Positions 30,591 to 32,295 of a stretch of DNA of 64,000 nucleotides are shown in pieces. A model generated the notes under the pieces. The model saw only the letters and a list, made by a program, of their open reading frames with translations. It was not told where the DNA came from and made no database searches. This DNA is from an uncultured Nitrososphaerota archaeon. GTDB taxonomy: Archaea; Thermoproteota; Nitrososphaeria; Nitrososphaerales; Gagatemarchaeaceae. The DNA lies in contig OY969807.1 of assembly GCA_963703285.1 (NCBI GenBank), positions 1,472,001 to 1,536,000 of the forward strand, read 5' to 3'. A program made the position numbers and the translations under genes. Numbering within the stretch: the first letter of the stretch is position 1; every line of letters begins with the position of its first letter.

Positions 30591-31649
30591 TCACTTGCTG
30601 ATGGTTGCCTTGTTCTCGAAGACTTCCTTGGGAATCAGGCCAAAGACGTCGGGATGCTTCTTCCGCAGGGACTCTTCGGAGGGAGGAAAGAGCCCCGCCC
30701 TGATGGCCCGCCTGACGTTTGATTTCACAAACTGCTTGTACCTTGTGTCGCCGATGTACGAGAGCACGGCGTCCGTCGCCGCGGTCTCGTCCAGCCCCTT
30801 GATCGTAGTGAAGTAGGGGGCGAGGATGAGCCAGATCACCCTGTGCCTCCCGTCGGTTATCGGATGGGCGAGCAGCCTCTGGATGTAGTCGTACTGCTTC
30901 CCTCGCGGGACCGAGGGGCGGGGGATCTGGCTCCTGAACTCGTCGACCAGCGAGTGGATGAACGGCTGGACGGATGCGGTCTTCAGCGCCCTCATGCCCG
31001 AAATCATCAGCCCTTCGACGAGCGCCGCGAAGAAGTCCTGGATGTCGTTCAGGGAGAAGTAGACCAGACCCGAATGCACCCGCATGTTGACCAGGCTCCA
31101 CCTGGGATCGCGGGTGAGCTCGTAGTTCGTTGAGACTGACAGGTACTCCATCACAGGACAGACGAACCTCTGGTCCCTGCCCCTGGTCAGCTGTAGGCCG
31201 ACCGCCTCGCGCAGGATGGAGACCATCTCCTCTGGGCTCTCCTTCAGGAAGAACTTCTTCGCGCGGAACGATTCCGTCTTCGAGAGGGCCGCTCTGAGAA
31301 ACGGCTCGCTCTTGGCTGCTAGCATCGCGACGAAGAAGCTGTAGAACTCGACCAGCTCCTCGCGGGCCGTGAGGTCGTTCGTCCGCCTCCTGTAGGTCTG
31401 GTAGTCGAAGACGCGCACGTTCTGTATGTCTATCTCGGGGTTCTTCAGAGCGAGCCAGATGCGATAGCGTGCCTGGTCCAGTATCGGTTCGTGGAGAGCC
31501 TTGAACACTTCGTCGTTCAGGGGATAGTCGGAGAGGAAGTCCCTCGAGGCCTTCAGGAAGGGATACTTCACGATCTTCTCTTCGATGGACAAGGCTACCC
31601 TCCGTCCATCCAGAAGATTGATGGCCAGTGATATCCTTTCTCCGGTCAT
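30591..31649 (-). CDS. Primase accessory subunit: PriL N-terminal domain fused to a PriX-like domain
   Basis: KYPFL..A and W.LVN..V..G.V (PriL-like); YDYIQRLL..PI.DGRHR.IWLILAPY...IKG (PriX-like). Confidence 0.75.
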   Translation of the reverse strand: MTGERISLAINLLDGRRVALSIEEKIVKYPFLKASRDFLSDYPLNDEVFKALHEPILDQARYRIWLALKNPEIDIQNVRVFDYQTYRRRTNDLTAREELVEFYSFFVAMLAAKSEPFLRAALSKTESFRAKKFFLKESPEEMVSILREAVGLQLTRGRDQRFVCPVMEYLSVSTNYELTRDPRWSLVNMRVHSGLVYFSLNDIQDFFAALVEGLMISGMRALKTASVQPFIHSLVDEFRSQIPRPSVPRGKQYDYIQRLLAHPITDGRHRVIWLILAPYFTTIKGLDETAATDAVLSYIGDTRYKQFVKSNVRRAIRAGLFPPSEESLRKKHPDVFGLIPKEVFENKATISK

Positions 31650-31808
31650 TCGAAGGCCGAATCGTGAACACCTTATTGAGCGTAACCGGTCAGGCACAGA
31701 CCCATGGGCGGGAGAGGCCTGAAAGTGACCGCGCGCCCCCGCCATCCCGGCATGACCGCAGCGGTACCTCGCCAATCTTAATAGTTGGTCAGGCTTCGCT
31801 TGTAGGTC

Positions 31809-32094: not shown

Positions 32095-32295
32095 TTGACG
32101 GAACAAGAGACGTCAACCCTTGAATCTCCAGAGAGGTCGGAAGCAACCGAGGAGCTCTACGAATGGTTCTGGGACAAGCTTCAGAACAAGTGGATCAAGG
32201 TGACGTCGAAGAACAGCCAGGGTAGGCGGTGCGGTCGCTGCGGGTGCAGCTGTCCCTGCACTTGCGCAGACTGTCTCTACCAGTGCTGCTCCTAG
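32095..32295 (+). CDS. Small protein with Cys-rich C-terminus (metallothionein-like)
   Basis: CGRCGCSCPCTCADCLYQCCS; AT-rich promoter-like sequence upstream. Confidence 0.65.
   Translation: MTEQETSTLESPERSEATEELYEWFWDKLQNKWIKVTSKNSQGRRCGRCGCSCPCTCADCLYQCCS

Follow-up and report, generated by a model that had tools for sequence, protein, structure and literature searches.

The 64,000-nt stretch analyzed here (the window) covers positions 1,472,001 to 1,536,000 of contig OY969807.1 (assembly GCA_963703285.1) from an uncultured Nitrososphaerota archaeon of the Gagatemarchaeaceae. At 30591..31649 on the (-) strand it carries a gene whose 352-aa product joins the N-terminal domain of the primase large subunit PriL to a PriX-type domain in one chain. 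We refer to the gene and its product as PriL-X, and conclude that PriL-X is very probably the sole large (non-catalytic) subunit of the replicative PriS-type primase of this organism, and that this subunit is free of an iron-sulfur (Fe-S) cluster. The computational evidence consists of the identity of the two domains, the conservation of a nucleotide-binding triad, the lack of cysteines in the C-terminal part, the absence of other PriL-like genes from the genome and of the PriL Fe-S domain (PF04104) from the taxonomic family, and an interface with PriS in predicted complexes. The [4Fe-4S] cluster of PriL is usually called conserved throughout archaea and eukaryotes, its role being disputed (PMC3914693; PMC10250227), and Raymann et al. 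2014 likewise treat the PriL Fe-S domain as conserved.

The open reading frame (ORF) is stop-free over 352 codons and ends with a stop codon at 30591-30593. A longer TTG-started frame encloses it and extends to 31775. Related sequences favor the ATG at 31649 as the start, since the nearest relative, P0003 (88% identical), is also 352 aa long and the N-terminal extension is common to clade-A relatives (see below). The 86 homologues that we collected measure about 312-438 aa and all contain PF18689. An AlphaFold2 model built on 45 relatives reached a mean predicted local distance difference test (pLDDT) value of 89.5 and a predicted template modeling score of 0.71. From the N-terminus, all on the (-) strand, the chain consists of an extension (residues 1-23, 31581..31649), a PriL N-terminal domain (residues 24-236, 30942..31580), an inter-domain linker (residues 237-251, 30897..30941) and a cysteine-free PriX-type domain (residues 252-346, 30612..30896). 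The extension is a predicted beta-hairpin (strands 5-11 and 17-23, pLDDT 76-87) shared by clade-A relatives and without counterpart in S. solfataricus PriL, to which the alignment begins at residue 23/24. The linker is the segment left between the two structural alignments given below, and pLDDT drops to 68 within residues 241-250.

The N-terminal half had been called PriL-like in the original prediction on the strength of two motifs, KYPFL (residues 28-32) and W184-S-LVN-MR-V-HS-G-L-VY, both of which are present in the translation, and structure and profile comparisons bear this out. VIA-align placed residues 24-236 on residues 3-209 of S. solfataricus PriL (5of3_E) with Z 15.3 and a root-mean-square deviation (rmsd) of 2.7 over 184 residues; Foldseek matched the model to 1zt2_B, also S. 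solfataricus PriL, with a template modeling (TM) score of 0.71; and hhalign aligned the N-terminal profile to that of eight canonical Nitrososphaeria PriLs over 204 columns (probability 98.6%, E 8.3e-16). Five NCBIfam PriL models match the N-terminal part only, all far under their cut-offs, the best being NF002591 (E 1.4e-9, residues 25-218, 37.6 bits against a cut-off of 479). The PF04104 [4Fe-4S] domain with its four cysteine ligands has no match in the protein, which holds a single cysteine overall (C164).

The C-terminal domain belongs with PriX, as had been proposed from its lack of cysteine and from the strings YDYIQRLLAHPITDGRHRVIWLILAPY, IKGL and GLFPP; all three strings occur in the translation and residues 245-352 contain zero cysteine. 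The only Pfam match of PriL-X is PriX PF18689 (38.3 bits where the cut-off is 25, E 1.6e-9), which spans residues 253-341 and profile positions 1-93 of 95; in the genome scan the same model gives 40.7 bits. VIA-align superimposed residues 252-346 on residues 56-154 of PriX (4wyh) with Z 13.4 and an rmsd of 2.3 over 95 residues, Foldseek gave a TM score of 0.80 with 4wyh, and hhalign of the C-terminal profile against ten stand-alone PriX proteins gave a probability of 99.3% (E 2.8e-20). The crossed comparisons were not significant, with a probability of 0.6% for the C-terminal profile against the eight canonical PriLs and 0.3% for the N-terminal profile against the ten stand-alone PriX proteins. 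The best PDB sequence match is 5ofn_B, deposited as 'PriL-X fusion protein' (E 3.7e-10, residues 165-338), and the match is colinear across the engineered junction; PriX itself (4wyh, 5of3_C) comes next. By these sequence and profile measures the similarity of PriL-X to PriL and to PriX is far above chance. The PriX domain is found in a 352-aa chain together with a PriL N-terminal domain, not as a separate third subunit beside an Fe-S PriL.

In S. solfataricus PriX, the initiating nucleotide is held by its triphosphate at residues D70, R72 and R74, and alanine changes at these positions abolish or severely impair initiation, leaving extension unaffected (PMC5700102; PMC6393858). Residue alignment to 5of3_C and 4wyh pairs this triad with D266, R268 and R270 of PriL-X (D266-G-R268-H-R270, 30840..30854 on the (-) strand). 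The string D266-G-R-H-R270 is invariant in 45/45 aligned relatives, and D-x-R-x-R was found in all 55 two-domain cluster representatives examined. The C-terminal part has zero cysteine in 43 of the 45 relatives and more than one in none.

The original prediction left two options for PriL-X, a second large subunit or a replacement for the canonical one, and it proposed a search of the genome for priL, priS and priX. That search found one priS, one PriX match, which is PriL-X itself, and no canonical priL. The genome is one closed contig (C1) of 2,252,123 bases (2.25-Mb) with a completeness estimate of 95.98%. Both PF18689 and the profile made from PriL-X relatives (A1) hit a single locus, PriL-X, and the only PF01896 (PriS) match lies at C1:1706532-1706963, about 203 kb away, in agreement with the earlier remark that no priS adjoins the gene. 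PF04104 gave 0 matches across the genome. Because a negative PF04104 result is weak evidence by itself, further searches were run, making four in all for a second PriL: PF04104, a custom hidden Markov model (HMM), and the full-length NCBIfam PriL models NF007127 and NF002591. The custom HMM, built from four canonical Nitrososphaeria PriLs and run with --max on 30,204 six-frame ORFs, detected only PriL-X (E 5.5e-14); NF007127 and NF002591 detected the PriL-X ORF alone; and tblastn for canonical PriL found nothing in the genome. At the canonical loci that we compared (L003-L006) priL abuts priS, and two of them (L003 and L005) also carry the PCNA gene. In the present genome the PCNA gene (1701664-1702557) and priS (1706094-1707167) are still close to each other, but no priL is found there.

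The same pattern holds across the host's taxonomic family (f1), in which a PriL-X homologue is present in 54/61 genomes and PF04104 in 0/61, in contrast to the sister families of the same order, in which PF04104 is present in 80/80 (f2), 3/3 (f3) and 3/3 (f4) genomes, or 86/86 together. In a class-wide sample of 151 genomes, in which the 80 genomes of f2 include one unpublished genome (G132) that enters no other result, PF04104 was found in 126. A full-length match to the A1 profile was found in 12 genomes, namely the present one, 9/9 genomes of family f5, one of f11 (G043) and one of f7 (G003). Full-length PriL-X and PF04104 never occurred together (0/12; 0/126). Neither was found in 13 genomes, nine of which, those listed, are 72-86% complete. 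For the class's canonical PriLs, the match to the A1 profile is confined to positions ~10-230 (E 1e-5 to 1e-16). The absence of any other PriL-like gene from the closed genome and of PF04104 from all 61 genomes of f1 led us to favor replacement over a second subunit.

A model of the complex with PriS was also proposed at the outset. The predicted PriS:PriL-X complex had an interaction prediction score from aligned errors (ipSAE) of 0.86 in three runs, against 0.00 for the highest-scoring of three controls; that mark was reached by 58/80 solved complexes and 2/110 mismatched pairs. Contacts agreed to at least 60% among the runs, and partner pLDDT was at least 83. The predicted interface is formed by PriS residues 164-229 and PriL-X residues 165-202 (31044..31157 on the (-) strand), a segment that includes the conserved W184, G194 and N201. 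Since PriS-PriL complexes have already been solved, we take this prediction as likeness and not as proof of binding; likeness to the solved complexes may suffice for such a score.

The architecture is not limited to this genome; its bearers make up a sizeable family, which within f1 consists of two paralogous clades. With f5 and f7 as the root, a tree of 58 full-length proteins divides the f1 sequences into clade A (33 rows), which includes PriL-X of the present genome, and clade B (23 rows), with support of 97 and 98, respectively, in the Shimodaira-Hasegawa approximate likelihood ratio test (SH-aLRT). When the 54 f1 genomes are sorted by identity to P0001 (at least 43% for A, at most 41% for B, a few being checked on the tree), about 12 carry A only, 41 carry B only, and one carries both, the last (G190) being a 220-contig assembly with 6% contamination. 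Clade-B genes at six loci from two genera (L013-L016, L019, L020) share long synteny, and clade-A genes lie elsewhere than the clade-B slot. The clade-B block is present in our genome at C1:1608000-1621000, with the genes that flank the slot at 80-87% amino-acid identity. The clade-B gene itself is missing from its slot (C1:1615654-1615824), where the neighbors lie 170 bp apart, and tblastn with E values up to 100 gave no more than chance-level matches in this 170-bp interval, so that no remnant of the gene was detected. With the resident clade-B copy gone from the place where it is otherwise conserved, PriL-X is the only candidate partner of PriS. PriL-X sits exactly at the end of synteny with G180 and G206 and shares no neighbor with the clade-A loci L008-L012, for which only ~1.5 kb of flank is available. 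PriS is far better conserved than PriL-X: the nearest PriS relatives are 75-81% identical, and the nearest PriL-X relatives 57-62%, two near-identical sequences aside.

Several points weigh against reading PriL-X as the sole, cluster-free large subunit. The evidence behind it is computational. The NCBIfam PriX model NF033412 (an equivalog_domain model) scores PriL-X at 49.2 bits, 0.8 under its cut-off of 50, a near-miss that is probably why relatives are named 'hypothetical protein' by their sources. Y103 and D140, which buttress the arginines in PriX, align with I299 and H332 of PriL-X and so have no column-for-column match; Y298 and D334, the latter in the nearly invariant H332-P-D334, adjoin these two positions and are the sole candidates for the parts of Y103 and D140. 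Most of the family counts come from metagenome-assembled genomes of 55-100% completeness. PF04104 may be fallible as a marker, being empty in 3/10 f31 and 2/6 f25 genomes of a phylum-wide sample, both families with stand-alone PriX, although the presence of PriL in those five genomes was left unchecked; and stand-alone PriX is described only alongside an Fe-S PriL (PMC12019639). It is thus conceivable, if improbable, that the present genome holds a very divergent stand-alone Fe-S domain protein. Finally, clade A is patchy, is non-syntenic between genomes and lies at a synteny break here, which would also fit a mobile origin.

Two rival explanations draw on these points. PriL-X could be an accessory or second large subunit that works beside an undetected canonical Fe-S PriL, as in Sulfolobus. 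That PF04104 can miss diverged PriL C-terminal domains, as the five f31 and f25 genomes may illustrate, and that the completeness estimate stands at 95.98% would both leave room for such a protein; the closed single contig, the four independent searches without a second PriL-like N- or C-terminal domain, the 0/61 count in f1 and the strict separation of full-length PriL-X from PF04104 in the class sample make it highly improbable. Instead, a mobile element might have left PriL-X behind as a remnant or carry it as cargo, and PriL-X would serve the replication or repair of that element, the chromosome being primed otherwise. The patchiness of clade A over genera, its lack of synteny and the position of the gene at a break with G180 and G206 suit this idea, as does the occurrence of PriX domains in integrase-linked genes of ammonia-oxidizer genomes (see below). 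We consider it very unlikely nonetheless, for a Pfam search of nine neighboring ORFs found no integrase or other mobile-element gene near PriL-X; the A1 alignment, when run against viral contigs, met 87 pattern stretches, none of which was confirmed; PHROGs gave no match for the protein; and the mobile-element-type PriX proteins have a different N-terminal domain. The departure of the clade-B copy from its slot, which leaves PriL-X as the sole candidate partner, and the predicted interface with the chromosomal PriS also weigh against it. We retain the sole large subunit as the most likely reading of PriL-X.

As a working mechanism we propose a two-subunit primase of PriS and PriL-X, modeled by analogy on S. 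solfataricus PriSLX, from which nucleoside triphosphate (NTP) binding, primer initiation and an essential replication role of PriL-X would follow. The PriL N-terminal domain would dock the chain on PriS, and the linker of ~15 residues would give the PriX domain the freedom to swing to the active site. D266 (via a metal ion), R268 and R270 of the PriX domain, at the start of helix 268-283, could there grip the initiating NTP by its triphosphate. The PriX domain would present this NTP to PriS at its elongation site, where the dinucleotide would form, and might afterwards keep hold of the 5' triphosphate of the growing primer. A PriX-type domain would thereby stand in for the canonical [4Fe-4S] C-terminal domain, with no Fe-S cluster involved.

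The closest known systems each share some features with PriL-X. S. solfataricus PriSLX (PriL in 1zt2 and 5of3; PriX in 4wyh and 5of3_C) shares with PriL-X the fold of the PriL N-terminal domain, the PriX fold, the triad and a PriX domain free of a cluster. Its PriL and PriX are separate chains, whereas PriL-X is one polypeptide with neither a separate PriX nor an Fe-S C-terminal domain, and lacks the N-terminal region by which Sulfolobus PriX contacts the Fe-S domain; sequence identity to the S. solfataricus counterparts is ~20%. The hosts differ as well, a soil member of the Nitrososphaerales (Thaumarchaeota), as judged by the names under which sources list its homologues (the four DNA runs of this organism come from one soil-metagenome study), as against a crenarchaeal thermoacidophile. 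A further counterpart is an engineered protein, the PriL(1-211)-PriX(42-154) 'Chimera' (PDB 5ofn; Holzer et al. 2017, PMC5700102), which showed full activity in making primers, at wild-type levels (PMC5700102). An S. islandicus strain with the Chimera only (CHI-deltaX) is viable and more sensitive to DNA damage (PMC12019639, 2025). The Chimera and PriL-X have the same domain order and nearly the same junction, with linkers of 16 and ~15 residues, respectively, between the equivalents of PriL-209 and PriX-56; the Chimera is man-made, whereas PriL-X is natural, widely conserved and equipped with the extra 23-residue N-terminal hairpin.

Canonical archaeal PriL (PF04104), as found in the ammonia-oxidizing sister families, has an N-terminal domain homologous to that of PriL-X but ends in a four-cysteine Fe-S domain and adjoins priS at L003-L006; PriL-X has neither feature and lies ~203 kb from priS. 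The PriS-PriL(CTD) primases of Nanoarchaeota and other DPANN archaea (NEQ395; PMC10250227, PMC3914693) are, like PriL-X, natural rearrangements of primase to fewer chains; they join the catalytic domain to the Fe-S domain, whereas PriL-X leaves PriS separate and has the Fe-S domain replaced. PriCT-1 and PriCT-2 of mobile-element primases of the pRN1 type (Kazlauskas et al. 2018, PMC5862659) are Fe-S-free helical domains that are structurally related to PriX and aid initiation by archaeo-eukaryotic primases (AEPs). In plasmids and viruses they are fused to the catalytic AEP domain, whereas the PriX domain of PriL-X has a PriL N-terminal domain as its partner and is encoded by a chromosomal gene.

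How the single chain arose is a separate matter. The single-chain PriL-PriX architecture of the original prediction stands; its word 'fused' describes that architecture, and as to origin the tree would allow either fusion or a fission that gave rise to the stand-alone PriX of Sulfolobales. It is conceivable, at somewhat less than even odds, that the single chain is the old form and that stand-alone PriX of Sulfolobales and relatives derived from it by duplication or fission, in place of a free PriX having joined a truncated priL; this account is compatible with the function proposed for PriL-X. In a tree of 39 PriX domains under midpoint rooting, the stand-alone PriX sequences, 11 in number, group as a single clade (SH-aLRT 99) on a long branch of 1.36, placed among the fused forms, and fused forms occur in the deep lineages f1, f5, f7 and f11 and, by database names, in Marsarchaeota and Micrarchaeota. 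The tree is made of ~100 columns with an arbitrary root, its deep forks have support of 80-88 and one row (P0080) is mis-sliced, all of which weigh against this account, as does the 0.6% probability of the C-terminal profile against canonical PriL C-terminal domains. Because of this lack of detectable similarity, decay of the Fe-S domain in place cannot be traced. The same 39-row tree places the Marsarchaeota/Micrarchaeota group (SH-aLRT 100) together with clade A (97), which we note as a lead only.

Taken jointly, these results would fit a broader picture, to which we give an even chance. Free-living lineages, namely f1 (sister to the ammonia oxidizers), other Nitrososphaeria families and, as named in databases, Marsarchaeota and Micrarchaeota, would replicate their chromosomes with an Fe-S-free primase whose large subunit is a natural PriL-NTD::PriX, the N-terminal domain (NTD) being that of PriL. 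Two paralogs would replace each other in f1, A having displaced B in the present genome, and the stand-alone Sulfolobales PriX may have split off from the single chain and not have been its source.

PriX has been called 'specific to Sulfolobales' (PMC9258230), 'Sulfolobus-specific' (PMC12680538), present 'in some crenarchaea' (PMC12770985) or found in 'several orders of Crenarchaeota' (PMC10250227). Our full-text literature search, whose coverage left out supplements and Liu et al. 2015, returned no natural PriL-PriX chain and no PriX outside Crenarchaeota. PriL-X sequences are already public and some are automatically named 'PriX'; the architecture and its meaning appear undescribed in searchable papers. 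The range of PriX would thus be wider than Sulfolobales or some orders of Crenarchaeota. Because the PriL-X genes are labeled 'hypothetical protein' or 'PriX', such genomes seem to lack PriL. As a natural counterpart of the laboratory-built Chimera, PriL-X suggests that nature took the same route and retained it across whole lineages, and it would offer a natural test of whether a primase needs the Fe-S cluster. For biochemistry it could provide a natural, evolutionarily tested Fe-S-free primase, and the lineages that carry it may serve as a comparative handle on what else changes with the loss of the Fe-S domain, for example in double-strand-break repair.

The reach of the family was assessed in two further data sets. 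Among 301 genomes of the phylum sample, PF04104 was present in 287 and PF18689 in 21. Stand-alone PriX ORFs of ~145-182 aa occurred in 10/10 genomes of f31 and 6/6 of f25; PF18689 was found in a 245-aa frame in 1/13 genomes of f15 and in longer forms in other families. The profile search of 1.84 billion public protein representatives retrieved 786 at E<=0.001, 188 at <=1e-10 and 23 at <=1e-30. By hand count, 55 of the best 150 of the 786 representatives have both domains in one stretch (a match that starts at or before profile position 100 and ends at or after 310). Among the ten clusters looked up, named relatives include one JGI 'DNA primase large subunit' as well as proteins from Candidatus Marsarchaeota and Candidatus Micrarchaeota that bear the name 'DNA primase noncatalytic subunit PriX'; in one Micrarchaeota protein the match to the profile is full-length, the placement in Marsarchaeota and Micrarchaeota being that of the database names.

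Some of these relatives have features of their own. In the distant two-domain representatives P0229-P0302, which include those of Marsarchaeota and Micrarchaeota, the motif is mostly D-V-R-H-R, and the C-terminal domain of most of these proteins holds two cysteines, which may be conserved but could not supply the ligands of a four-cysteine cluster. P0210 (690 aa) is twice the usual length with a profile match in two stretches; it might represent a tandem or fused form, or else an artefact of gene calling. The f25 stand-alone PriX proteins (L038-L041) each contain 6-7 cysteines and have an N-terminal stretch rich in cysteine; those of f31 have 0-1 cysteines and an N-terminus unlike that of the f25 proteins. 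In G246 (family f21), a 351-aa ORF at L043:95-1150 (-) has the PriX domain with DGRHR at its N-terminal end (residues 22-119), followed by ~230 residues without a Pfam match; this genome also carries a canonical PF04104 PriL.

A second PriX-bearing architecture was met in ammonia-oxidizer genomes and in G063. PriX matches in G032, G124, G120 and G138, and in G063, were considered as second copies of PriL-X and rejected, as only the C-terminal part matches and the N-terminal part is different. These proteins measure 320-391 aa with PF18689 at the C-terminus. The ORFs in the four ammonia oxidizers lie at L021:6063-7031, L022:5412-6527, L023:6002-7066, L024:6235-7197 and L025:6127-7098, and that of G063 at L045:409-1584. 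The N-terminal part of the L045 protein has weak primase matches (phrog_16345, E 9.4e-8; PF01896 below cut-off). At L021 and L022 the PriX-bearing gene comes after an ORF of 729-861 aa without a Pfam match, and an integrase-like ORF that scores near the PF00589 cut-off lies a few kb upstream; these two loci look like integrated elements. The five ammonia-oxidizer copies are without D-x-R-x-R.

The neighbors of PriL-X in the window encode a MoxR ATPase, a DUF58 protein, a membrane protein, a NUDIX protein and others. An AATAA (31673..31677 on the (-) strand), centered ~26 nt upstream of the ATG, may tentatively be read as the TATA-like box of a leaderless PriL-X transcript. About 450 bp upstream of PriL-X lies a divergent 66-aa ORF (32095-32295 on the (+) strand) with nine cysteines in its last 21 residues and no Pfam match; its DNA is 74-78% identical in three genomes of the same genus, where it is located away from the PriL-X gene.

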